Origin: a virus
Lineage: Duplodnaviria; Heunggongvirae; Uroviricota; Caudoviricetes
Direction: 5' to 3' (one strand)
DNA: 37,418 nucleotides
Virus record (IMG/VR): IMGVR_UViG_2695420585_000012
The notes under the pieces were generated by a model. The model ran no database searches. It worked only from the letters and a program-made list of their open reading frames with translations, and was not told the origin of the DNA. The position numbers and the translations under genes are program-made. The first letter of the stretch is position 1. Every line of letters begins with the position of its first letter. Shown piece after piece: positions 4,266 to 37,418 of this stretch.

Positions 4266-4747
4266 GACAGCAGCCCTCCCACCGTTTTACTGATATCGCT
4301 TAAGGCAGATGTTGCCGTTCCCTGCAGATTATTCAGTTGCGCACTGAGATCACCGAACATATCGGGCAGGGATTCATCCACGCGTTTTAGCGACAGGGTG
4401 AACTCAATCCGGCGCGGCATACCGTCGCGGAAAAACTCCGTTTTAGTCTGATTCAGTCCCTCAATCACATACATGCCGTAAATCGTGCCGCTGCCTTCAA
4501 TCAGGGGCCATGCTTTCCCCTGTTCTGCCATCTGCTCCAGTGCCAGCAACGACAGCCTGCCGCCTGTTATTTCCGGCATAAGAACACCGGAAAGCGTCAG
4601 CATGTCGTTTTCCGGTCCCAGAAACTGCGTGGACGGACGTCGGTTTACCCGACTGTTTGCCGCATGTCGCCAGCTGCGTTGATACTGCAGTTCCTGATAC
4701 GGAACGGTGCGCAGCATAAACACGTACAATCCCAGCACCATCATCAT
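4262..4747 (-). CDS. U: Tail protein gpU
   Basis: 161-aa ORF; start overlaps T stop and stop overlaps D start; P2 gpU-like order. Confidence 0.8.
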   Translation of the reverse strand: MMMVLGLYVFMLRTVPYQELQYQRSWRHAANSRVNRRPSTQFLGPENDMLTLSGVLMPEITGGRLSLLALEQMAEQGKAWPLIEGSGTIYGMYVIEGLNQTKTEFFRDGMPRRIEFTLSLKRVDESLPDMFGDLSAQLNNLQGTATSALSDISKTVGGLLS

Positions 4748-7700
4748 GCGTCGTATCCCCCCTGATCGCTGTAGTTACTCCTGGCTTTTGCCTTCAGCCT
4801 GCGTTCACGTTCATCAAGCTGGCGTGCCACCTCCCGCGCAATATCCTGCGCACTTTGTCCTGGCTGCGTCTGGATGATGATCTGCGTCGGTGCCTCAATC
4901 CGGTGAACGGGCGGCACAGCAGCTACGCGACTCACCATCGCTTCACCGCCTTTCGCGGGAAGCGCCAAAGGATGCAACGGTGGAAGCTCTGCTGGCGCGG
5001 CAGCAACTCCCATCATTCCGGCGACAACCGCAGCCAGTGCAGCGGTATTTCTCCGGCTGGTCACGTTTGCCGGACCGTTGACAATTTCCGGCCCGTTTTC
5101 ACCGACAATGCCGAACTGCCCGCGCGGGATATAGCCGCCGCTGTCATACATCCCCGCAAAGCCATATCCCCATGACGGAAAACCACCCGATGGCATCATC
5201 ACTTTACCGTCTGCATTCACCGTCGCAGGTTGCTGACGCGTCACGCTTTCCGGCAGTTTCGCCTTTGCAGCCTCTTTACTGACAATGCCGAGTTTCTCCA
5301 GCAACCAGGAAACGCCGGATTTCAGGGAGTCCAGCGGATGCATGACCATATTCAGCCCTTCTGCCAGTGCCTCCCCGAATCGTCGCCCCATTGCCGCTGC
5401 GCTCTGCAGTTCGGCAGAGGTCGACTTAACGGGCGTCAGCAGATCAGTAAACCAGCCCCACAGCGCCTGCACTTTGTCGCCAATCCACTGGAACACGGGC
5501 TTAAGCGGTTCGAACGCTGCACTGATGGGACCTGCCGCCGCTTTGAATCCTTCCACCACGCCACCGAGAAATGCGGTGATGGGTTGCCAGTATTTCCAGA
5601 CAACCAGCGCCACGCCCGCCAGTGCAGTAACCACAAGACCTATCGGACTGAGCAGAGCACCTAACAGACCAGATATGGCATACAGGGTAACGCGCAGCAT
5701 CGCCAGTGGACCAGATGCCAGTACTCGCAGCACCGTGCCTGCGGCGGCCAGTCCACCGCGCAGTACCGCCAGAGGATTCATAAACATCACAGCAACAGCA
5801 CGTAAACCGGATAATCCAGACCGCAAAAGTGCAACCGGCGCACCTGCTACAGTTTTCAGGACATTTCCCGTCAGTGATGCCGTGCGGCGCAAAGACGACA
5901 ACGGCGCAGTAAGTAAACCTGCGGCGTTGCCCGATGAAGCAAGCCCGCGTCGCAGCAGTGCCAGTGGTGCGCCAGCCAGCCAGGACAACGCGCTGCTTGT
6001 TCGAGTTACTGCTGCCGTAACGGAAGGTAACGTTTTGATACCCAGCACAGAGAATCCCAGACGGATCACTGCCAGCGGCCCCAGCACTGCAGCCAGCGCC
6101 ACCGCTAAGGTGCCGAGGCCGACGGTAACCGCAGCCACAACAGCCGATGCTTTCATCAGTGTGCCTGTCAGTTCCGGGTTAGCTTCCACCCAGCGACGCA
6201 ACGCCCCCGTGACGCTTTTCACCGTGTACAGAATATCCATCAGCGGCTGGCGCAGCGTTTCGCCCAGGCTGCTGAAGGTGTTCTGCGCTCCGGTTTTGAC
6301 CAGCAACCACTGCGCAGAAAGTGAATCCTTGTTAATGTCGGATTCTTTCTGCATGGAGCCGAGCGCATCATTGCCCGCTGTCAGTTTTAACTGACGCTGC
6401 AGTTCCGGCAGGTTGTTTGCCAGTTTCGCCGCGTCATCGCCAAACTCTTTACCAAACAACATAGTCATGGCAGACAGACGCTTGTCCTGCGGCAGCGCGT
6501 TTACCTTCTCCAGCACGCGCTGGATGGTTCCCATCGCATCCTTCGTCATCTGCTTTTCAATCACTTCAGGATTGAGTTTCAGCAGATTCATCCCTTCAAA
6601 GAAACTCTTGCTTTGCATGGTGGCAATGGACAATTCACGCACCATCGCGTTTGCTGCACTGGCTGCAACCTCTGGCGCAGCGCCCAGTGTCAGGAAGGTG
6701 GAACCCAGCGCCGCCGCTTTACGATAATCCAGACGGTCAGCCACACCGCCCAGACGTTGCATCACATCAATGATGTCTGCCCCTTTCGACATGGCGTTAT
6801 CATCCAGATAGTTCAGCGCATCACCGAGCTGTTCAATATTGCGGGTGGGGATTTTGTAGAGCTGGGCGATTTTCCCCAGACTTTCTGACAGTTCATCCGC
6901 TGGCAGCTCAAAGGCTGTTGCCGCCTTTGCTGCCGTACTGGCGAAGGCCAGCAGGTCACGTTTCTGATCTTCCCAACTGTCGTCAGGGTTTGCGACGTTC
7001 ATGCGCGCACCACCTTCAACCAGTGCAGCGAAATCCACCGCACCGTTTTCCATCGGCAACTGTTCGCTGGCAGCCTTGATGGCATCCTGCATTTCATAAA
7101 AACGTGCAGTGCGGTTGCCATTATCGTCACGCAGACCATTGACCTGCTTTGCCACACCTTTCATGGCATCTTCCATGCTGGTATAGCTTTTTACTGCCGC
7201 CATCACTGGTGCGCCCATTGCCAGCCCTGCAGCCGTGGTGGTGGCTCCGGCACCTGCAATACGATCACGCACCTCCAGCGAACGGGCATAACTGGCACGC
7301 GCTGCATTCATCCTGCGCTGAGCTTCCCCCAGTCGCTTCAGCCGCGCCTCCTGTTTCGAAAGTTCCTGGTTATAACGTGATGTTTCACGGGCTAAACGGG
7401 CAGTTGCTCCCGCATCGTCTTTCGCAGAAATTCCCGCCCGGTACAGTTCAGCACGCACAAGCGCCGTCTGCTGCTGCAGCTTTTTCTGGCGTTCTTCCAG
7501 GCGCTGAACAGCCAGCCGTTGACGGCCCAGAGCAACAACCTGACGTTGCGAAGGCGGCCCCATCGCTCCCAGTTCCTGACTGAGCAAATTTGCACGCTGG
7601 CGGGCATAGTTCAGCCTGTCGCCTAATTTCTGATTTTCTGCCTGCAGCTTTCGGAAGCTGTCCAGACTGCTCCCGGCCTGATCAAGCTGCTTTATTGCAT

Positions 7701-7821: not shown

Positions 7822-8250
7822 CGTTGGCCCCGCTTCTCTGAATCGCTTTATACCGCCATTCCAGCACTTCGGTCAGCGGCATAACGTCAGTAACGGATGG
7901 CGGCCAGTGAAAGATGGTGGCGATATCAGCCACCAGATCGTCAACCGTCAGGCTGTCGGTAAACCGGCAAGCACCGACTTCTTCAACAAAAAAGTGACAA
8001 CCTCAACCGACATGGCAGTGAGATCTGCCGGGTCCATCTCTGCAATTTCCTGTGCAGTCAGTGCCGGACTGGAGATGCGGGGGATCACGGTCATCATCGC
8101 GTTCACATCCATATCCATAATGGCCTGCAGGCGTGTACCGCGCAGCGCACCGGACTGCGGTTTACGCAGCACAATTTCGGTAATTTCTGTTTTACCGCGC
8201 TTGATAGGGGTATCCAGTTGAATGGTCTTTTCAGTCTGCTTATCGCTCAT
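7814..8250 (-). CDS. E+E': Tail assembly chaperone E+E' (-1 programmed frameshift product)
   Basis: TTTTTTG heptamer at about 7985-7991 in the E frame; the -1 frame is then open for 57 codons and stops at TGA overlapping the T start codon. Confidence 0.6.
7948..8250 (-). CDS. E: Tail assembly chaperone gpE
   Basis: 100-aa ORF upstream of T; ends ...VTFLLKKSVLAGLPTA with the slippery heptamer inside its 3' end. Confidence 0.8.
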   Translation of the reverse strand: MSDKQTEKTIQLDTPIKRGKTEITEIVLRKPQSGALRGTRLQAIMDMDVNAMMTVIPRISSPALTAQEIAEMDPADLTAMSVEVVTFLLKKSVLAGLPTA

Positions 8251-8304
8251 TTTGTTGTCCTGTAAATTAGGTTCTGGCGCGGAATCCCGCGCCGTTCAGA
8301 TACA

Positions 8305-8820
8305 TCAGAGGCCGAGGGCGTTGCGGTGCGCTTCCATCAGGTCCACACCGTCCACAATTTCCACCATGTTGATAAGGTCCACTTCATAGAGCACCTCACC
8401 ATTGATGGTCAGCTTCGCGTAGCTGTTGGTACTGGTCACTTTGGTGGTGTTGCTTTCGCCCGTCTTCCACTCACCGGAATCCACTTCTTTGTGACGTCCA
8501 CGCACCACAAGCTCCACGGCCTGCACTTCCCCGGTATCGTCACGCTGGATAGAGCCGGTAAAGCGCAACTGGATGCCATCCACCGTGGCTTTGCCCATCT
8601 GCTTAAACAGCAGCAGTTCAGTACCACCAATGGTAAATTCTGTGTCCAGCGCACTGTCATCAAGCCCCAGATCCACATCCACTGCCCCCGGCATTCCGCC
8701 ACCGCGATACTTCTCATATTTGCGGGTGAATTTCGGCAGCGTCAGCGACTCAACGATCCCCTGCCAGTTGTTCCCGTCGTTAAACAGGTTCAGGTGTTTT
8801 AATTTGCGTGGTAAAGCCAT
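8305..8820 (-). CDS. FII: Tail tube protein gpFII
   Basis: 171-aa ORF, P2 FII-like sequence and position. Confidence 0.9.
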   Translation of the reverse strand: MALPRKLKHLNLFNDGNNWQGIVESLTLPKFTRKYEKYRGGGMPGAVDVDLGLDDSALDTEFTIGGTELLLFKQMGKATVDGIQLRFTGSIQRDDTGEVQAVELVVRGRHKEVDSGEWKTGESNTTKVTSTNSYAKLTINGEVLYEVDLINMVEIVDGVDLMEAHRNALGL

Positions 8821-8829
8821 GTTGTCCCC

Positions 8830-10002
8830 TTACGCGCTGACCTGGCTGGCGAAATTCACCAGGTACTGATCGGTGATGCGCTGACGCAACATCAGGTTTT
8901 CAAGTGGCGGCACTGGCGTGTAGTCGTAGTCGATGGTGAGTTTTCCGGCTTTCAGAGTGTCTTTGTCGTTCACCGACTCGTCCAGCCAGCAATCACCACC
9001 AATGAGATACCCCTGACTGACCAGGCTGCGCATTTTGGCGCGGATGCCCTCGATAATGTCGCGCGCCAGCGACGGGTTCAGCGGTTTGTCCACTGCCCAC
9101 ATGTGCGCTTCTGCCATTGTGTCCGTCAGCACCTGCGCCGTGCGGGTGTAGTTTTCGAAGGCAAAGAGCGGGTCATCACTCAGGCAGCGGGAACCCCAGA
9201 AGCGGAAACCGTCTTTACGCACAAGCGTGGTGACGTCGTTCTGGTTCAGCAGACCTGCATCGGTTGCCGGGTCCTGCAGATCCCAGAACACATCTGCAGA
9301 AATTCCGGTGACACCGTTCACGCCCACGTTGGACAGGCTTTTGTGCCACCCAGTCTGCTCATCAATTTTGGCACGCAGACCAAGCGCACGGGCGGTGGCA
9401 TATGCCGTTGCTTCGGCATTCAGCACCGTGTCCCAGCCAGTAAAGTCGGGCCAGATCAGCATTCCTTCGCGCTGGCTGAAGTTTTCACGGTAAGTGATCG
9501 CCTCCTGTACCGTCTTGCAGCCATACGCTGACAGGTAGGCAAACCCACGCAGGCTTTGCGCCACACTCAGCAACTCAGTCGCAACGGCTTTGTTATCGTG
9601 ACCTGGCACGCCGAGAATGCGCGGTTTAACGCCGAGCTGTGTCTGGGCAGATAACAGGGCTTTCATACCTGTTTTTTTACCTTCAGCAGTCACTGCGCCG
9701 ATGATATTGGTCGTGGTTTCGTCTTCCGTTTCACCCTGCGGCACACGCACAACAATGGTCACGGGTTTTGCCTGGTCAGCGATGGCATCCAGCGAACGGG
9801 CCAGAGTACCTGACTCACCCGCTTTACCGCTGGCAGTCAGCACATCAGTGATCAGCACGGGTTTATTAAGAGGAAACATTTTTGCATCGGCATCATCGCC
9901 CGTGCAGACCATACCCACGATGGCGGTGCTCACCGTGGTAATGGATCGGGTGCCTTCGTTGACTTCAACAACGCGCACCCCGTGGTGGTAATCCTGAGCC
10001 AT
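8830..10002 (-). CDS. FI: Contractile tail sheath protein gpFI
   Basis: 390-aa ORF, P2 FI-like; AGGAGG Shine-Dalgarno upstream of the ATG. Confidence 0.9.
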
Positions 10003-10077
10003 AGTGGCGAACCTCCTGATTGGATTAGGCTTCGCCCTATGTTGAAGTGATTGTGCCTGACAAACAGCTAAGCGCAG

Positions 10078-10097
10078 TTGTATCGTTATTCACACAA
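10078..10097 (-). promoter_or_regulatory. Candidate Ogr-binding dyad of the late promoter for the FI-FII-E-T-U-D operon
   Basis: TTGT-N12-ACAA centred about 85 bp upstream of the FI start in an intergenic gap. Confidence 0.45.
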
Positions 10098-10144
10098 AAT
10101 GACGGTATTTGTCTGCTTGCAGGGATAATCAAAATAATGCTGAT

Positions 10145-24649: not shown

Positions 24650-24988
24650 TTAACAAACAGCGTATAAACCATCAAATCCAACGGAATGAACCTTTTTTGA
24701 TGCTACTTCATTGCTACGGCGTTGGATCACTTTTGCAATACTTTTTAAAATTGAAGGGGATGCATTGCGAACCTTAACCTGACTCAAAACTTTGGTTACA
24801 CCGAATTTCACTACCAAAACACCAAAGATTTCATCAGAGTATGATTCTGAAATTGAATAAACACCGCTCAGGTCTAAATCTACGGTATACCCTTCTTTAA
24901 TGAACCCTTCAATCTTGTGTCGTTGGGGGATAGCCTGATTGCGCGAAGCCAGGTCACCCTCGGGTAACTTGTATGCGATTTTGTTCAT
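24650..24988 (-). CDS. STAS-like (anti-sigma-factor-antagonist-like) small protein, cargo
   Basis: 112-aa ORF whose start overlaps the stop of the upstream ATPase gene; central DLSGV...SISESYSDEIFGVL segment resembles STAS/DUF4325-type domains (recalled, not searched). Confidence 0.45.
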   Translation of the reverse strand: MNKIAYKLPEGDLASRNQAIPQRHKIEGFIKEGYTVDLDLSGVYSISESYSDEIFGVLVVKFGVTKVLSQVKVRNASPSILKSIAKVIQRRSNEVASKKVHSVGFDGLYAVC

Positions 24989-25962
24989 TACTCTCCTCCT
25001 AACGCCCGCATTATTTCCATAAGCTGAGGGTCATTTTCTTCGCTATCTTTATCGACTGCCAGTTCATGAATCTTAAAACGGCAAGAAATTGCTACACCCG
25101 GCCATTCAGTACGTAATTCAGTATAGCTCACTTCATCACCTATTGCTTCTAAGCATACATTTCCTGAAGCCAGTTGCAATTCCCCATTATATGTTTTTAT
25201 CAATTTCATCAAGTGATATAACCCAAGCCCTTGATGATTATTATCTTTTTCTTTGACCGAAACCCCGTGACCAAACACACTACCCCCAATAAAATCCTGG
25301 GGAAGTTGCTGTGCCCAATCATCCTGCAAATCAGCATGCTTAGATGAATGTCCCTCTTGAATACACCATGCGATCGCATCCTGGTGAGTCTCAATTCCGG
25401 GTATACCAGCTCGCCGCAATTCTCGGAGAAATCCTAACCCACAGTCCGCCAAAGAAAATTCTAAATAGTGCTCTTTTCTTTGTGTGTGGGGTACAGCCGA
25501 ACGTTGTGCAAAAGAAAAACCCGTTGATTTTCCATGCGACCAAACGTTATCGTGAAGCTCACCTATAACATGTGTTAGATCTGTAAGTCCCTTGGGATAA
25601 TCTCTCGGATCACGATCAGGGAATGTTAACTGCCTTACACAACTGTTAATACTACCAGTGGCAACGTCAACAGCTTCAACATTGGTTAATGCTGTAACCA
25701 AACTGTAATTTCTCCCAACATTTACACGTTCCTGTTGATACTGATCCTCGCCCCATAAAGCACCATGTAAATTGATAGCTCGCATATAGTCAGGGCATGA
25801 CAAAACGCAGTTATCTTCGGTAATTTTGTGATGATTCACGTAAGCTGCTAAGACAGTGATAAAACCAGGATGCCAATGGTTGTTTGGCAATTGCAATTCA
25901 TTAGTTTCCTTTTGATGAAACGCAGCGGTATGCACAATAGCGTCTTTTAATCCTAACCCCAT
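24988..25962 (-). CDS. GHKL/Bergerat-fold ATPase (histidine-kinase-like, RsbW/SpoIIAB-type) with N-terminal extension, cargo
   Basis: Visible N-box ELHDNVWSH, G1 box DCGLG and G2 box GLGLYHL; lower GC than structural genes. Confidence 0.6.
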   Translation of the reverse strand: MGLGLKDAIVHTAAFHQKETNELQLPNNHWHPGFITVLAAYVNHHKITEDNCVLSCPDYMRAINLHGALWGEDQYQQERVNVGRNYSLVTALTNVEAVDVATGSINSCVRQLTFPDRDPRDYPKGLTDLTHVIGELHDNVWSHGKSTGFSFAQRSAVPHTQRKEHYLEFSLADCGLGFLRELRRAGIPGIETHQDAIAWCIQEGHSSKHADLQDDWAQQLPQDFIGGSVFGHGVSVKEKDNNHQGLGLYHLMKLIKTYNGELQLASGNVCLEAIGDEVSYTELRTEWPGVAISCRFKIHELAVDKDSEENDPQLMEIMRALGGE

Positions 25963-25991
25963 GAACCGAACCTTTTTTATGCATTTTTCTT

Positions 25992-26020
25992 ATCATATAA
26001 CTTAGGACTGATCAGCGCAA
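25992..26020 (-). promoter_or_regulatory. Possible sigma70 promoter for the ATPase/STAS operon
   Basis: On the minus strand TTGCGC, 17-nt spacer, TATGAT, about 30 bp upstream of the ATPase start. Confidence 0.3.
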
Positions 26021-26075
26021 AGATCCCGACACTCTTGAATCATACTAAATTAAGGCATATACCACACAGCGCGCG

Positions 26076-26094
26076 CTCGTATCCCCGCCACGCC
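26076..26094 (-). other. cos: Candidate cos site (cohesive-end sequence)
   Basis: Minus strand reads GGCGTGGCGGGGATACGAG followed by CGCGCGCTG, closely matching the recalled P2/186 ends (GGCGAGGCGGGGAAAGCAC followed by TGCGCGCTG). Confidence 0.35.
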
Positions 26095-26294
26095 TGCCCA
26101 CTTTATGTAGTGGTTTTCATGCACCTGCATGACATAAGCAAAAGCACGCCAGTTCTGGCTGGCATCAGCGAAAACGATCGTCATACTATCATGCGATCTC
26201 ATGCGCCATATGAAGTTTTCCTGACACAGCCTTGGGTTGGGATAACACCTAACTCAGGAAGATTTTTTGTGTGTTTGTAACCCACACCTAGAGT

Positions 26295-27464
26295 TTACCA
26301 ATCCATGTTTGCGGCATTATCCATCTCACGAGTTAAGTAATTAACAAATAAGTCCATATTCCTTTCTGATTTCATCGCCTCCGCATAGGTTCCATTAGTT
26401 ACGTAAGATAGTATTAAAGGACATCCAGATTCAATATAAATTTTTGCTGGGGACAGTTCTCCCTGCCACAAATTTTCAAGAAAATCGTTAATTAATTGCA
26501 TTGCTTCAGGTGCCAAAAAATGCACACCATTTCCAAACTTGAAACGTTCTTTATTTTCTCGATGAGGCAGCAATAGTGGCACAGCCCCTACACTTGAGTG
26601 AAATTCCAATGCTTGCCCATCCTTACCGAAGGCGCCATGGGCTACAAAATTACGCACCTGTTTTCTGAGTATAAGTAAACGATCATAGAACAATTTTAGA
26701 CTGGAAGAGTTAATATCAATGGCTAATTTGAATTTCTCCCCCCATTCTTTTCCAACTTTATCAGCCACATCATTCCCATTTTTTATCTCACCCTTCAAGA
26801 TTGCAATAAGAATGAAAACATGCTCGGTCCAATTGAAAAATGACTCAATTGCAGACGTTGCTAACCACATAGCCTCTCTTCGGAGTTCAATTATCTTATT
26901 TGATTGTTCAAAAGTGGATTGTAACAGGCTGAAAAAATTATCAGACTTAAACTCACTATCAACTTCCAGTTTAGACTCTTGGCCAGCAGCAACTTCATCA
27001 AGCTTCTGTTTATATAGCTCTAAAAAATAGCAAAACCTATCATAAAGAGAATTAGCATTGTTATTAACATTTAGATTTGAAGTCTTTGCTGCATTGTCTG
27101 CAAGCGAGTCAAAAAAATTCGTAGCAGCTTTAACCCCTGCGCAAATATGTCTCAAAACAGTTTTAGCTTGCTCTATATCATCATCACTCTTGATAAATAT
27201 ATCTAAACCAAGTTTACGATGTTCTATAATTACGACAGTCCCATCAATCCGGACTGGGATAGAAAAAGAAATCTTCTCATCAACCCCACGATTTTTAAAT
27301 TTCAGTAAATCTACCAAAAGAAAATAAACGAGATAATACGGAGGTAATGAGTCTCCCAAACCCGAGCGCTTACCCCAAAAATATTCATCAAGCTCGGCAG
27401 ACTCCATTGTCCCTATGACTCTTCGGACGCGTTCTTCAACTTTAGCCAGATCCATTCCCCACAC
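26295..27464 (-). CDS. Hypothetical cargo protein with HEPN-like RNxxxH motif (possible Abi-type RNase)
   Basis: 389-aa AT-rich ORF between the SOS-regulated small gene and cos; motif ILRKQVRNFVAHG. Confidence 0.55.
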   Translation of the reverse strand: MWGMDLAKVEERVRRVIGTMESAELDEYFWGKRSGLGDSLPPYYLVYFLLVDLLKFKNRGVDEKISFSIPVRIDGTVVIIEHRKLGLDIFIKSDDDIEQAKTVLRHICAGVKAATNFFDSLADNAAKTSNLNVNNNANSLYDRFCYFLELYKQKLDEVAAGQESKLEVDSEFKSDNFFSLLQSTFEQSNKIIELRREAMWLATSAIESFFNWTEHVFILIAILKGEIKNGNDVADKVGKEWGEKFKLAIDINSSSLKLFYDRLLILRKQVRNFVAHGAFGKDGQALEFHSSVGAVPLLLPHRENKERFKFGNGVHFLAPEAMQLINDFLENLWQGELSPAKIYIESGCPLILSYVTNGTYAEAMKSERNMDLFVNYLTREMDNAANMDW

Positions 27465-32792: not shown

Positions 32793-32815
32793 CCCTGATG
32801 TATCTCAAAATGGAA

Positions 32816-33037
32816 CTAGTTGAATACAACATTGCAATCAGTCAGTGCATCAACGGTAAGAGCAGCAAGGTTGATCATTACCTTTTCTCTTTTCTTGTCT
32901 TTACGGAGACGATGCCGAGGGATGCGACCATCAGCCAGCATATCGTTGATTGTGTCGATCGAAAGACCAGTAAGTTCGCTATAACGCTCAATTGTGACGT
33001 GTGGCGTATTCAGAGTTATTGAAATGTTAGGGGTCAT
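32816..33037 (-). CDS. Apl/Cox-like HTH excisionase / switch regulator
   Basis: 73 aa from ATG with AGGAG upstream; divergent from the repressor; first early gene. Confidence 0.55.
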
Positions 33038-33125
33038 GATGCAACATCTCCTATTGTCTTGTGATAAGCAGGTTTTAATCGTGACTTCAACTTCACAAAT
33101 CGGAGAATAGGATCGCAAAACGGAT
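33038..33125. promoter_or_regulatory. Lysis-lysogeny switch region (divergent early and repressor promoters/operators)
   Basis: 88-bp gap between divergently transcribed Apl-like and CI-like genes; individual operators not resolved. Confidence 0.4.
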
Positions 33126-34082
33126 ATGTCAACACACAAAATCACATTTCGCCATGTTGATGATGCAATGAAAACTGTAATCATGCAGAATCGTGGAGGA
33201 CAACAGGTCATTGACCGAATTTTGAAAGCTTATGGCTTCACTTCACGTCAAGCATTCTGTAACCACTTAGGGATATCCCAAAGCACAATGGCGAACAGAT
33301 ATGCTCGTGATACCTTCCCTGCCGACTGGGTCATAATCTGCAGCATGGAAACTGGCGTGTCGGTTGAATGGTTGGCATTTGGTACCGATAACACAGTAGA
33401 GGCTGTCACACATAATACAGAACAGAACCACCATAAAGATGGTAAGGAGATTCATTCTCTCACTTTAGACACAAAATCCCCAAATGAGAACAATACTCAC
33501 CGAAAGAACGAGAGCCTCATTGAGGTTAATCAAGGAGGAAAAGCGGCAATCGAGCGAATAGTTATCGCCTATGGATTTAAGACAAGGCAAGCTCTAGCGG
33601 ATCACATTGGTGTTTCAAAAAGCACATTAGCCAATCGTTACATGAGAGATACCTTTCCAGCTGATTGGATCATCCAGTGCGCACTTGAAACCGGAGCTTC
33701 ATTAATGTGGCTAACAACCGGTAATGGTCCTGTCTTTGAAGACGCTAAGAGCGATATTATTGCTATCACACGGAAAAAAGTTATAAATGGTATGTTGTTT
33801 GATACAAATTATCTCCCTTTTGATAAAACCATGTTACCCAGCAAGGTGAAAAAACCCATATCTATAGTAGATGAAGGAAATGTATATCTTGCAGACAAAG
33901 CATTTGATGAAGTAACCGATGGAAAATGGTTAGTTGAAATCGAAGGAAAATTTAGTGTTAGAGATCTAACCAGAATTCCAATTGCAAAAGTAAAAGTATC
34001 TAATGAAAGTACAACTTTTGAATGTCTATTAGCGGATATTAATGTAATAGCAAAATGTTTTGGTATATATAAGGATATTTAA
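33126..34082 (+). CDS. CI-like immunity repressor with duplicated N-terminal domain
   Basis: 318-aa ORF; two ~62-aa repeats each with an AYGF...ANRY.RDTFPADW...ETG...WL.G pattern, ~58% identical to each other, then a C-terminal domain; resemblance to 186 CI is from memory. Confidence 0.7.
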   Translation: MSTHKITFRHVDDAMKTVIMQNRGGQQVIDRILKAYGFTSRQAFCNHLGISQSTMANRYARDTFPADWVIICSMETGVSVEWLAFGTDNTVEAVTHNTEQNHHKDGKEIHSLTLDTKSPNENNTHRKNESLIEVNQGGKAAIERIVIAYGFKTRQALADHIGVSKSTLANRYMRDTFPADWIIQCALETGASLMWLTTGNGPVFEDAKSDIIAITRKKVINGMLFDTNYLPFDKTMLPSKVKKPISIVDEGNVYLADKAFDEVTDGKWLVEIEGKFSVRDLTRIPIAKVKVSNESTTFECLLADINVIAKCFGIYKDI

Positions 34083-34865
34083 ATGACAGACCTTCCTAAC
34101 AATGAAGAGATGCTTCTTTATGCCAAAAGGAACCTTGAGTTTTTCATTAAAACATTCTACTTACACTTTTATTCTGACATTGAGTTATTGCAAGCCCCAG
34201 CTCAACCTGAAACAGAAGAACAACGACTGAAACGCTTAATATCCGAAAAAGAGAGTTTCTTTCAATCTGGCTTGGTAATACTTTTTAATTCTGCTGAAAT
34301 ATATCTAAAGTCTATAATTGCTGAGCATAGTGTTTATTTACTTTTAAAAGAAGTAAAAGACTGCTATAAAAACAAATCTTTTTTCGAATGTTCAACATTA
34401 GACGCAACCGAACTACATAGAATAGCACAAAGTATCAGTGGGCGAAATCTTTCACCGCGCTTTAATGAAATTTATGATATTTTGCGCAAAGAAAGAAATA
34501 AAGTAATTCACTTAGGTAAAAGTAATAATAAAGAAATACGTAAAGACTTTTTAAGTGCATTTCTAATTTTTCGAGAGGAGATATATCAAGAGCCTCTTAA
34601 TAACCTGGTTCATTGCTTGATAAATGATAAAAACATGCCTGAACAAAAATTAGTCGAGGCAAAGAAAAACTATGCAGCAAGCATTATAGACATGATGAAA
34701 ATATTTTTTCCTTTAGATGATATTTTAGCCAACATATATAAGATTGATGGAAAACCGAAAAATTGGAATGTTTGTACTAATTGTCAAACTCCGGGGAAAA
34801 CACTCGCCGTCATATCTAAAACTAAATCAATTTGCTTATCATGTGATTTTAAAATAGGATTGTAA
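34083..34865 (+). CDS. Hypothetical cargo protein with HEPN-like RNxxxH motif and C-terminal CxxC...CxxC ribbon
   Basis: 260-aa AT-rich ORF starting immediately after the repressor stop; motif ILRKERNKVIHLG; C-terminal CTNCQ...CLSCD. Confidence 0.55.
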   Translation: MTDLPNNEEMLLYAKRNLEFFIKTFYLHFYSDIELLQAPAQPETEEQRLKRLISEKESFFQSGLVILFNSAEIYLKSIIAEHSVYLLLKEVKDCYKNKSFFECSTLDATELHRIAQSISGRNLSPRFNEIYDILRKERNKVIHLGKSNNKEIRKDFLSAFLIFREEIYQEPLNNLVHCLINDKNMPEQKLVEAKKNYAASIIDMMKIFFPLDDILANIYKIDGKPKNWNVCTNCQTPGKTLAVISKTKSICLSCDFKIGL

Positions 34866-34867
34866 AC

Positions 34868-35938
34868 ATGGAAAACTTAAAATACATACCTTTTAATCAA
34901 GTAGATTTTTCTGATGTTTTTTTTGACTCTTTAAAATCCGATTATGCTCATGGGTTTATTGATTGGTTCCATTCTAAATGTAAATCAAATGATTATGCAT
35001 ATGTCCTTTATGATGAACAAAATAAAATTGATGGTTTTTTGTATCTAAAAACAGAAGTAGGTATCATTGAAGATACAAAACCAAATATTCCTGATGGTAT
35101 TCATCTAAAAGTTGGAACATTTAAATTTAATCCAAAAGGAACTCTTCGTGGTCAACGATTTTTAAAAAAAATATTCGATCACGCTCTAGATAATAATGCT
35201 AACAATATATATGTGACTGTTTTTGAAAAACATGACTACTTAATTAGACTATTCAAAATCTATGGCTTTATAGATATTGGAGTAAAAGAATCTGAAAATG
35301 GTGTAGAGCGAGTACTAATAAAAGAAATGAATAGTAATGCTCTTACGGGCGATATACTGTCAGATTATCCATTTATTAATAACAGAGGCAGTGAAAATAA
35401 ATTCTTGCTTTCAATATACCCCGTATTTCATACTCGTTTATTCCCTGACTCAAAATTAATTACAGAGTCACCAGACGTTGTTGCTGATGTATCATATGCA
35501 AATAGCATTAGAAAAGTATATATTTGTGGCATGTCAGATGTTGAATTAATGAAGCCAAACGATATAATCGTTATATACCGAACATCCGATAATCAAGGGC
35601 CTGCATATTACCGTTCTGTTGCTACTTCTTTATGTGTAGTAGAAAAAGTTAGAAATATAAACTCTTTCGTTACAGAGAAAGAATTTCTAAATTACTGTTC
35701 TAGATATTCTGTTTTTACAGAATCTGAGCTTAAAAGTTTTTATAGAACAAAAAAATACCCATATATTATAAGCTTTACATATAACCTTGCTTTGCCCAAA
35801 AGACTAAATCGTGCTAAACTTATTTCTGAAGTAGGATTATCCCCGCGAGCTTACTGGGGGATCATGAAGTTAACAAACGAACAGTTTAATAGCATTATTA
35901 AACTTGGTGGCGTCAATGAAAGTATTATTGTCAATTAA
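34868..35938 (+). CDS. Hypothetical cargo protein, possible GNAT-like N-terminal domain
   Basis: 356-aa AT-rich ORF 2 nt after the preceding stop; segment GTFKFNPKGTLRGQRFLKKIFDHAL...YGFIDIG loosely resembles a GNAT acetyl-CoA-binding region; C-terminal half unassigned. Confidence 0.45.
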   Translation: MENLKYIPFNQVDFSDVFFDSLKSDYAHGFIDWFHSKCKSNDYAYVLYDEQNKIDGFLYLKTEVGIIEDTKPNIPDGIHLKVGTFKFNPKGTLRGQRFLKKIFDHALDNNANNIYVTVFEKHDYLIRLFKIYGFIDIGVKESENGVERVLIKEMNSNALTGDILSDYPFINNRGSENKFLLSIYPVFHTRLFPDSKLITESPDVVADVSYANSIRKVYICGMSDVELMKPNDIIVIYRTSDNQGPAYYRSVATSLCVVEKVRNINSFVTEKEFLNYCSRYSVFTESELKSFYRTKKYPYIISFTYNLALPKRLNRAKLISEVGLSPRAYWGIMKLTNEQFNSIIKLGGVNESIIVN

Positions 35939-36287
35939 CCCAGAGCATGTAGAAAAAATCCTTAATGGAACAAAGAAATTTGAATTCCGAAAAGGAATTT
36001 TCAAAAAACCGGATGTAAAATCTGTGGTTATTTATTCAACAATGCCTGTCGGTAAAGTTGTTGCTGAATTTGACATTGCAGATGTTATAGAAGACAAGCC
36101 AAGTATTGTATGGGAAAAAACAAGCCAATACGCAGGTATCAGCAAACAATTTTTTGACTCATATTTTCATAGCAAAGAAAAAGCCTTTGCTATAGAAATT
36201 GGCAATCTAAAAATCTATGATCAACCGCTTCATCTAAGTTCATTAGGTGATAACATAACGGCCCCGCAATCATATCGGTACTTATGA
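35916..36287 (+). CDS. ASCH-domain (PUA-like) protein, cargo
   Basis: About 123 aa from MKVLLSINPEHVEKILNGTKKFEFRK, matching the ASCH hallmark GxKxxExR as in E. coli YqfB; overlaps the end of the preceding gene. Confidence 0.6.
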   Translation: MKVLLSINPEHVEKILNGTKKFEFRKGIFKKPDVKSVVIYSTMPVGKVVAEFDIADVIEDKPSIVWEKTSQYAGISKQFFDSYFHSKEKAFAIEIGNLKIYDQPLHLSSLGDNITAPQSYRYL

Positions 36288-36365
36288 TGTATGTAACCTC
36301 AAGCATCATACATTGACACTGGTTATACATACAGTAAAAATGCTCTCCACTGGAGGGCATTTTTT

Positions 36366-37418
36366 ATGGCAGTACGAAAACTCACCACAGGAAAATGGCT
36401 TTGCGAATGTTACCCCGCCGGACGCAGTGGGCGTCGTGTGCGTAAACAATTCGCCACCAAAGGCGAAGCACTGGCTTTTGAGCGCCACACGATGGAAGAA
36501 ACCGAAGCAAAGCCCTGGCTGGGTGAATCAGTGGATCGTCGAACACTGAAAGACGTGGTTGAGCTATGGTTCAAACTACATGGTAAATCTCTGACAGCTG
36601 GGCAGCATGTCTATGACAAATTGCTGTTGATGGTTGACGCTCTGGGCAATCCTCTTGCAACCGATCTCACCTCTAAAATGTTTGCCCACTATCGAGATAA
36701 ACGCCTGACAGGCGAGATCTACTTCAGCGAGAAATGGAAGAAAGGAGCAAGCCCGGTCACCATTAACCTGGAGCAAAGCTATCTAAGTAGTGTTTTTAGC
36801 GAACTATCCCGTCTGGGCGAATGGTCGTATCCGAACCCACTGGAGAACATGCGAAAATTCACCATCGCAGAAAAAGAGATGGCATGGCTTACCCATGAGC
36901 AGATTGTTGAATTGCTGGCTGATTGCAAACGTCAGGACCCAATTCTGGCACTGGTAGTTAAGATATGCTTAAGCACAGGCGCACGCTGGCGTGAAGCCGT
37001 AAATCTTACCCGCTCACAGGTGACCAAATACCGAATTACCTTTGTCAGAACGAAGGGGAAGAAAAACAGAAGCATCCCTATCAGTAAAGAGCTTTACGAA
37101 GAGATCATGGCGCTTGATGGGTTCAATTTCTTCACAGACTGCTATTTTCAATTTTTATCCGTGATGGAAAAAACGTCTATCGTGCTCCCTCGCGGTCAAC
37201 TCACACACGTTCTGCGCCATACGTTTGCGGCGCACTTCATGATGTCGGGTGGAAACATTCTGGCCTTACAAAAAATTCTCGGACACCACGATATAAAAAT
37301 GACTATGCGTTACGCACATCTGGCACCGGATCATCTAGAAACGGCGCTCCGTTTCAATCCTCTGGCAACGCTGCCAAGTGGCGACAAAGTGGCGGCAGCG
37401 GTTGGCATTACCCCGTAA
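36366..37418 (+). CDS. int: Tyrosine integrase (P2 Int family)
   Basis: 350-aa ORF with conserved C-terminal R...HxxR...Y catalytic region (LSTGARWREA, HVLRHTFAAHF, RYAHL); stop codon is the last 3 nt of the window. Confidence 0.9.
   Translation: MAVRKLTTGKWLCECYPAGRSGRRVRKQFATKGEALAFERHTMEETEAKPWLGESVDRRTLKDVVELWFKLHGKSLTAGQHVYDKLLLMVDALGNPLATDLTSKMFAHYRDKRLTGEIYFSEKWKKGASPVTINLEQSYLSSVFSELSRLGEWSYPNPLENMRKFTIAEKEMAWLTHEQIVELLADCKRQDPILALVVKICLSTGARWREAVNLTRSQVTKYRITFVRTKGKKNRSIPISKELYEEIMALDGFNFFTDCYFQFLSVMEKTSIVLPRGQLTHVLRHTFAAHFMMSGGNILALQKILGHHDIKMTMRYAHLAPDHLETALRFNPLATLPSGDKVAAAVGITP

Follow-up and report, generated by a model that had tools for sequence, protein, structure and literature searches.

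Which function is served by three AT-rich genes that lie tightly packed between the repressor gene and the integrase gene of a prophage, and do these genes act together as one system? The question is raised by IMG/VR virus record IMGVR_UViG_2695420585_000012, a 186-like (P2-family) Escherichia coli prophage of 37,418 nucleotides (in the following called the window, by which the whole analyzed stretch of DNA is meant), in which a cassette of three plus-strand open reading frames at positions 34083-36287 fills the gap between the genes cI and int. Judged from the sequences, genes 2 and 3 are of an already known kind, i.e., a pair of a GNAT-EVE protein and an ASCH protein, here called GevT and GevA, to which the product of gene 1, a HEPN-zinc-ribbon protein, is the new addition. 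The reading preferred here, to which we assign a probability of roughly 0.55, is that the cassette is cargo expressed in the lysogen and consists of an acetylation-based toxin-antitoxin or abortive-infection pair, GevTA, with an attached HEPN effector.

Over their full length, gene 2 (34868-35938, plus strand; 356 amino acids) and gene 3 (35916-36287, plus strand; 123 amino acids) match the PADLOC models PDC-M11A (E 2.4e-130) and PDC-M11B (E 4.9e-48), respectively. The AlphaFold model of the gene 2 product (predicted local distance difference test, pLDDT, 89.0) shows two parts, an N-terminal GNAT domain (approximately residues 1-155) and a C-terminal PUA-like EVE domain (approximately residues 175-356). 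Residues 222-356 show 44% identity (E 5e-37) to an EVE domain of the census by Bell et al. (2020; PMC7641849), so that the membership in the GNAT-EVE group was tested directly. With the PUA-like C-terminal half of gene 2, the locus has two PUA-like domains, the other one being the stand-alone ASCH protein encoded by gene 3 (Pfam ASCH, 3e-5; similarity to ZmASCH, E 5e-8). An architecture termed "(PIN)-GNAT-EVE" was described before, together with the findings that its operon almost always encodes a second PUA-like (ASCH) protein, that the two are predicted to form a toxin-antitoxin pair and that GNAT-EVE and ASCH operons are present in gamma-proteobacterial prophages (Bell et al., 2020; PMC7641849). 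Furthermore, the record of phage PhiR47_2 (PV340567.1) labels the pair "GevT toxin" and "GevA antitoxin". An initial annotation of this DNA had recognized the GNAT-like N-terminal half of gene 2 and the ASCH motif of gene 3, and both calls were right; it missed the EVE half of gene 2, and its statement that the three genes could not be assigned to a named system does not hold for genes 2 and 3 in view of PDC-M11A/B, the operons of Bell et al. and the GevT/GevA record.

Across 45 distinct gene 3 homologues, down to approximately 49% identity, the GevA octapeptide G18-x-K20-x-x-E23-x-R25 does not vary at these four positions. The EVE domain of GevT has no GKER motif and carries YPxFHTxLFPDS instead; a sequence homology between GevA and this EVE domain was not established by BLAST (E 0.086) or by hhalign (probability 17% over 23 columns), and only the fold is common to both. 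GevA is also hit by an NCBIfam model, NF008917 ("50S ribosomal protein L22/unknown domain fusion protein"), with E 1e-12 over its C-terminal 120 residues. Some bacteria thus have a ribosomal protein L22 with a GevA-type ASCH domain attached, and this fusion points, by domain association, to the translation apparatus.

The pair is not confined to the window. Gene 2 has 2613 detectable homologues, the 120 closest of which are all 301-364 amino acids long. The pair is detectable in 310 of 5426 complete E. coli genomes (5.7%), including O157:H7 and strain 536, and 282 of these 310 carry a form of approximately 65% identity, the kind carried by lambdoid phages. In E. coli it lies mostly directly after cI in lambdoid prophages, and the lambdoid phages 4A7, D2, 1W, 3W, PhiR47_2 and others have it right after cI, i.e., in the position of rexAB. 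An ASCH gene is adjacent to the GNAT-EVE gene in 95 of 95 surveyed loci carrying GNAT-EVE and lies directly downstream in 94 of them, usually with an overlap of 23 nucleotides; it is on the opposite strand in locus L001 and in the later-fetched locus L102.

Three loci show particular arrangements. In L001 (Photobacterium swingsii), the plus-strand gevT has no downstream ASCH gene of its own, and a minus-strand operon (7889-10129) converges on cI-HEPN-GevT, encoding a 405-amino-acid relative (26% identity, E 4e-21) of the 355-amino-acid product of a Klebsiella first gene, a GNAT protein of 185 amino acids and a GevA-like ASCH protein. At the non-prophage chromosomal site L102 (4001-6851), a HEPN-zinc-ribbon protein (34% identity) and GevT (51%) are accompanied by a convergent, intervening AAA_17/AAA_18 kinase-like gene and a convergent gene for GevA (49%); a link to AAA_17 had been observed before (Bell et al., PMC7641849), with which this arrangement agrees. 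In the mosaic prophage L111 (3019-7687), gevA and int are near-identical to those of the window, gevT is a different allele and the first gene, which overlaps the start of gevT, is of the 355-amino-acid type (381 amino acids here). This mixture shows recombination inside the cassette.

Gene 1 (34083-34865, plus strand) encodes 260 amino acids with a HEPN domain and a C-terminal CxxC...CxxC zinc ribbon. Its RNKVIH sequence and the paired CxxC motifs, which had been pointed out in the initial annotation, are both real: R138-N-K-V-I-H143 is a canonical Rx4H motif and, like the ribbon cysteines C231, C234, C251 and C254, is invariant in 16 gene 1 homologues. The protein shows the four-helix fold of HEPN domains and is a predicted ribonuclease (RNase). 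Searches of gene 1 against Pfam, NCBIfam and PHROGs gave nothing significant, a sequence profile search of the PDB gave no match, and Foldseek against viral predicted structures gave none at E <= 0.001. Of the named HEPN groups, the DUF3644/EC042_2821 type comes closest, with a weak PADLOC model match (E 2.4e-5); a census of HEPN domains records zinc-ribbon fusions of this type in the context of restriction-modification and mentions GNAT or ASCH 0 times.

The close family of gene 1 comprises 24 clusters among 5.8 billion proteins, from Enterobacterales and one Photobacterium, and a scan of 185,579 species-representative genomes yielded relatives at one locus. A profile search of 1.84 billion representatives resulted in 3 close clusters and approximately 350 remote relatives of about 300 amino acids. 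Among the best 148 of these remote relatives, 117 keep the Rx4H motif together with the zinc ribbon and 146 have an Rx4-6H motif. As there are approximately 350 remote relatives and none of the ten that were tested has a Pfam family, gene 1 is the tip of an unannotated HEPN-zinc-ribbon superfamily.

Linkage of gene 1 to the pair and the cI-int slot

A functional attachment of gene 1 to GevTA stands at roughly even odds or slightly better. Wherever the close gene 1 family was examined (12 of 12 lineages), its gene immediately precedes gevT, the codons abutting or overlapping (E. coli, four further 186-type viral contigs, Enterobacter hormaechei, Dickeya, Hafnia, Yersinia, Pectobacterium, Photobacterium and one more genome). 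This arrangement is found in three genomic contexts, including a decayed prophage beside a type VI secretion system locus (L004) and the non-prophage chromosomal locus L102. Gene 1 is present in 28 of the 5426 complete E. coli genomes, and the same 28 carry the near-identical pair. Moreover, in 186-type clades the pair is always accompanied by an upstream gene (35 of 35 surveyed loci), the 355-amino-acid family is seen only alongside GevTA, and its relative in Photobacterium is again encoded in an operon with GNAT and a GevA-like ASCH protein.

Some GNAT-EVE relatives carry a PIN RNase fused N-terminally (Bell et al., 2020; PMC7641849) and PADLOC models include N-terminal extensions of approximately 150 amino acids; an RNase placed N-terminal to or upstream of GNAT-EVE is thus a recurring design. 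A HEPN RNase expressed in the lysogen would presumably need restraint, and the operon holds no other candidate inhibitor for it. A fusion of HEPN, GNAT and EVE in one protein was not found, the best 150 HEPN-zinc-ribbon relatives being at most 403 amino acids long and the 120 closest GevT homologues lacking an N-terminal extension.

The alternative that survives best, and which is well conceivable although it falls short of even odds, is a stacking of two independent systems in a hotspot, in which gene 1 would be an autonomous HEPN defense or exclusion protein neighboring GevTA and would be self-inhibited until it senses a phage component, as is the prophage HEPN protein HepS. The constant company of gevT in all 12 lineages and three contexts, the restriction of the 355-amino-acid family to GevTA loci with its Photobacterium relative next to GNAT and ASCH, and the 35 loci of 186-type clades that never show the pair without an upstream gene argue against such a stacking. 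Several observations, however, speak for it and thus against a coupling. The pair is without an upstream gene in 282 of the 310 E. coli genomes and in all lambdoid loci. Among 186-type prophages, at least five unrelated proteins alternate at the upstream position, i.e., the HEPN-zinc-ribbon protein, a 355-amino-acid protein with a C-terminal membrane helix, 8xMP (PF24838), a DUF2207_C-like protein and a PDC-S48-like protein, and sister prophages accordingly carry unrelated, mostly membrane, proteins in place of gene 1. In the GNAT-EVE tree, the types of upstream gene are interleaved between near-identical gevT alleles, with L025 (DUF2207_C-like) as the sister of L026 (HEPN) and L024 (355-amino-acid type) as the sister of L023 and L004 (HEPN). 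The swap junction lies exactly at the start of gevT, where nucleotide similarity resumes at the start codon. Moreover, a homologue of the DUF2207_C-like protein is the only occupant of the cI-int gap in another E. coli, PD-Lambda-1 likewise occurs there alone, and L100, the sole one of the approximately 350 remote HEPN-zinc-ribbon relatives with a readable neighborhood, has no GNAT-EVE gene nearby. This exchange at the gene 1 position was, like the second PUA-like domain, absent from the initial annotation.

The same comparison across related prophages, which the initial annotation had proposed for the cI-int junction, showed that the content of the junction is variable and that its boundaries are sharp. 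In related prophages at the same chromosomal site (next to rcdA), the slot holds either PD-Lambda-1, a 314-amino-acid membrane protein or a 354-amino-acid protein together with GevTA, and PD-Lambda-1 (DUF4041, E 2e-120) stands alone in the cI-int slot of E. coli. A query consisting of the cassette plus its flanks (32800-37418 of the window) matched 1136 E. coli genomes, most of them in the integrase flank only, and the cassette, as variable cargo, is present in 28 of these 1136, in agreement with the earlier suggestion of acquired cargo. The position between conserved phage genes is fixed, the content varies and includes a known defense gene, and the boundaries are sharp: the cI-int junction of 186-like phages is a defense hotspot.

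Further occupants of the slot were recorded in the same comparison. The occupants at L097 1451-3127 and L098 1774-2718 (E. coli, adjacent to rcdA) are PD-Lambda-1 in some E. coli and the lone 314-amino-acid membrane protein in others; the C-terminal two-thirds of the latter are 51% identical to the product of the first gene of L025. The 8xMP membrane protein (PF24838, E 1e-25) precedes GevT in a separate 186-type clade (L039-L045 and L060, approximately 4382-4990), and literature searches found nothing on the 8xMP family.

A possible mechanism and its alternatives

The three open reading frames are coupled as tightly as initially described: the ATG of gene 1 directly abuts the TAA of the repressor gene (spacing 0), 2 nucleotides separate gene 1 from gene 2, and genes 2 and 3 overlap by 23 nucleotides (spacing -23). 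These spacings, and the presence of the same pair after cI in lambdoid phages, support an expression in the lysogen. As terminator-like sites on the plus strand were not detected anywhere from cI to the end of gene 3, a co-transcription of the cassette with cI from the lysogenic promoter, which had been considered before, can reasonably be inferred. Promoter-like sites in the cassette (20) are no more common than in shuffled sequences (16.6 +/- 4.1), so that an internal promoter is not claimed.

In the preferred reading, the EVE domain of GevT would dock on RNA or on a modified base, and the GNAT domain would acetylate the amine of an aminoacyl-tRNA or a nucleobase, resulting in translation arrest. 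GevA, which has an intact Lys/Glu catalytic motif, would remove the acetyl mark or compete for the same site and thereby keep the lysogen healthy. Infection by another phage would upset the balance between GevT and GevA and lead to cell death or arrest. Gene 1 might act as a latent HEPN RNase effector, with a role like that of the fused PIN RNase in PIN-GNAT-EVE, or it might be an independent killing module. For the proposed activity of GevA, a 2026 preprint reports that 19 of 19 tested, diverse ASCH proteins, including ZmASCH as the closest relative of GevA with a solved structure, deacetylate N4-acetylcytidine (ac4C) in tRNA in vitro and that the Lys/Glu dyad is essential (10.64898/2026.02.27.708502).

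A number of points weaken this reading. ZmASCH was also reported to be a ribonuclease for single-stranded RNA and is inactive on free ac4C, and deacetylation is thus not the only possible activity of GevA. The GNAT domain of gene 2 reaches only E 0.03 in Pfam and has an atypical acetyl-CoA motif (RGQR). PDC-M11 is a candidate only, and the names GevT and GevA come from a single GenBank record. Literature searches found no experimental paper on the GNAT-EVE/ASCH pair (PDC-M11, GevT/GevA) and no paper behind the GevT/GevA names; the searchable literature mentions PDC-M11 only as a line in a strain description. A preprint on H-NS that mentions EVE domains was set aside, as it concerns a different protein.

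Possible, albeit doubtful, is an explanation in which GevA neutralizes GevT without catalysis, either as an antitoxin that binds or sequesters it or as a DNA-binding regulator of the operon. Binding is the mode of most type II antitoxins, ZmASCH binds nucleic acids, and HTH-ASCH fusions exist, for which a regulatory DNA-binding role was suggested (Bell et al., PMC7641849). GevA itself shows no helix-turn-helix (HTH) in a Pfam scan, and the four octapeptide residues, including the Lys/Glu dyad, are strictly kept in all 45 sequences, which is more than a binding scaffold needs.

A bolder version of the preferred reading, which we regard as unlikely, is that all three genes form one system with RNA acetylation as the immune signal. 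GevT would write the mark on tRNA or rRNA, GevA would erase it and the HEPN-zinc-ribbon protein would execute the response, either by reading the marked RNA or by being switched itself by acetylation. The membrane proteins of the sister prophages would then be interchangeable executioners. Such effector swapping would resemble that of CBASS and Thoeris, but with a writer/eraser pair instead of a nucleotide second messenger.

It is improbable that the pair is a base-modification system that serves the phage, in which the GNAT domain would acylate a DNA or RNA base in the manner of Mu Mom and the ASCH protein would read or trim the mark in order to evade restriction or to tune translation. Iyer et al. 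(2013), as cited in PMC7641849, proposed that GNAT-EVE acetylates a DNA base, phage GNAT-EVE proteins may protect against host restriction-modification, and EVE and ASCH domains are regarded as modified-base readers (Bell et al., PMC7641849). However, the pair lies in the repressor operon in two unrelated phage types, which implies expression in the lysogen and not in the phase of lytic DNA synthesis. It is also kept in a decayed prophage and at a non-prophage chromosomal site, it was annotated as toxin and antitoxin by the depositor, and relatives of GevA act on RNA.

To a similarly small degree, the cassette might chiefly be an addiction or stabilization module that penalizes prophage loss and has no role against other phages, for which its toxin-antitoxin-like architecture, its place next to int and its intactness in a Dickeya prophage remnant with truncated cI and no int speak, but the slot otherwise holds the validated anti-phage gene PD-Lambda-1, the lambdoid pair sits in the rexAB position, PADLOC drew PDC-M11 from defense contexts and the rapid swapping of the neighbor gene is more typical of arms-race cargo.

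Boundaries of the cassette and further features of the window

The AT-richness described in the initial annotation holds: the GC content of the cassette is 0.313 compared to 0.505 for the window and 0.522 for the upstream sequence, and the cassette is the lowest-GC 2.2-kilobase stretch of the window. Its proposed extent of 34083-36287 delimits the AT-rich run of three genes correctly and is too short for the exchanged segment. Comparison with E. coli prophages at the same site shows that the AT-rich variable segment exceeds the three genes and reaches from approximately 33771, inside the part of cI that encodes the C-terminal domain, to approximately 36304; on the int side, 98% flank identity resumes at 36305. 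Homologues that retain the motifs, down to 34-58% identity, exist for each of the three genes, which are thus not chance open reading frames. The likely start of gene 3 is the ATG at 35916, which has a GGTGG Shine-Dalgarno sequence; the resulting product of 123 amino acids is also found in RefSeq and the resulting overlap of 23 nucleotides recurs in homologous loci. A TTG at 35904 was considered as the start of gene 3 and rejected on these grounds.

The repressor gene on the left of the cassette (33126-34082, plus strand) encodes a 186-type CI protein of 318 amino acids with a duplicated N-terminal helix-turn-helix (Pfam Phage_CI_repr twice, E 9.6e-58; Phage_CI_C, 7.2e-31). Typical 186-type CI proteins in related loci have 186-217 amino acids, the long form is also present in L032, L035 and L111, and RefSeq places the start of the repressor at a later ATG. 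The stretch 33701-34082 has a GC content of 0.317 and is AT-rich like the cargo, compared to 0.438 in the N-terminal part of cI, and the similarity to E. coli prophages with other cargo ends at 33770, within cI. It thus seems that the C-terminal (oligomerization) domain of CI (33771-34082, plus strand), as the left portion of the AT-rich variable segment, is swapped along with the cargo.

On the right, a structured spacer (36288-36365, plus strand) precedes int, with a strong RNA fold (36288-36368) of -27.3 kcal/mol and a z-score of -6.06; 0 of 200 shuffles fold as well. The second hairpin of the spacer (36336-36364) is terminator-like and both contains and sequesters the Shine-Dalgarno sequence of int, and this predicted structure suggests that int might be attenuated or under translational control. 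The spacer is part of the conserved int-side flank and carries an IS4 insertion in strain EC0880B (L117), which is uninformative on toxicity, as it lies between gevA and int and outside the genes. The tyrosine integrase gene (36366-37418, plus strand; 350 amino acids; Pfam Int_N, 3.2e-32; Phage_integrase, 7.2e-22) forms the right border of the cargo slot.

The minus strand of the window carries the portal gene, the replication gene A, Fil and CII/CP76. A second region of lower GC content (approximately 0.40-0.42; 24988-27464, minus strand) separates the portal gene from the replication gene A. Its open reading frames of 324 and 389 amino acids had no match in Pfam or PADLOC and one of them matches phrog_3364, of unknown function; in all probability, the region represents additional cargo in a different variable site of the P2 type.

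Comparison with known systems

The closest known systems are the GNAT-EVE and ASCH operons (PDC-M11, PV340567.1), with which the cassette shares the two proteins, their order, the overlap of 23 nucleotides and the prophage site after the repressor. It differs by the preceding HEPN-zinc-ribbon gene and by its place in the cI-int operon of a 186-type phage, and the term "HEPN" occurs 0 times in Bell et al. (PMC7641849). PIN-GNAT-EVE and ASCH systems likewise have an RNase N-terminal to or upstream of GNAT-EVE and an ASCH partner. There, the PIN domain is fused in one polypeptide that is typically linked to type I restriction-modification, while here a separate HEPN-zinc-ribbon gene is present in a prophage. 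An assignment of gene 2 itself to PIN-GNAT-EVE was rejected, as it has no N-terminal extension and aligns to residues 154-500 of the 501-residue PADLOC model PDLC04422.

With the HEPN toxins (HEPN-MNT, Csm6/Csx1, RnlA/LsoA, HepS and EC042_2821/DUF3644), gene 1 shares the HEPN fold and the Rx4H motif, and HepS is also prophage-encoded. It has, however, no MNT, CARF or RnlB-type partner and its constant neighbor is GNAT-EVE. GNAT toxins acetylate aminoacyl-tRNA and thereby arrest growth. A GNAT toxin, putative in the case of GevT, is common to GevTA and the GNAT-RHH systems (TacAT, AtaRT, KacAT, ItaRT), but the antitoxins of the latter are encoded upstream and are ribbon-helix-helix (RHH) DNA-binding proteins, and their toxins have a single domain. 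Both the HEPN-MNT type VII and the GNAT-RHH type II (TacAT/AtaRT) toxin-antitoxin systems were rejected because the defining partner is absent: the neighbors of gene 1 are cI and GNAT-EVE, with no nucleotidyltransferase in any locus, and the partner of GevT is a downstream ASCH protein, the putative toxin having an extra EVE domain.

The proposed logic, in which a toxin modifies nucleic acid and the antitoxin reverses the modification enzymatically, is that of DarT-DarG, which is also anti-phage; DarT-DarG uses ADP-ribosylation of DNA and a macrodomain eraser, whereas a putative acetylation and an ASCH amidohydrolase are proposed for GevTA. GevA has the same GKER-type octapeptide with the Lys/Glu dyad as the ASCH amidohydrolases and ac4C erasers (YqfB, TthASCH, EOLA1, TRIP4-ASCH, ZmASCH). 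These are housekeeping or stand-alone proteins, whereas GevA is locked to its GNAT-EVE partner in mobile elements. GNAT-EVE/ASCH pairs are widespread in temperate-phage repressor operons, and the report on tRNA deacetylation by ASCH proteins together with the strict motif of GevA leads to a testable hypothesis of a writer/eraser toxin-antitoxin system directed at the translation apparatus. For work on this, the cassette of E. coli lends itself as a model, as it is short, has a tractable host and occurs in natural variants that have HEPN, membrane proteins or no gene upstream. Should a coupling of the HEPN protein to GevTA be established, the three would constitute a novel type of system with three parts, in which a second RNase family was recruited to GNAT-EVE. 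If there is no coupling, the cI-int junction of 186-like phages is still defined as a defense hotspot and an unannotated HEPN-zinc-ribbon superfamily of approximately 350 clusters is still added.

Finally, the cassette resembles lambda rexAB, other exclusion genes expressed in the lysogen and the P2/P4 hotspots in that cargo is, presumably also here, co-transcribed with the repressor and that variable content is found at a fixed position, while the proteins differ. The P2 hotspots as classically described are said, with Rousset et al. 2022 as the account in question, to differ from the cI-int junction of 186-type phages.

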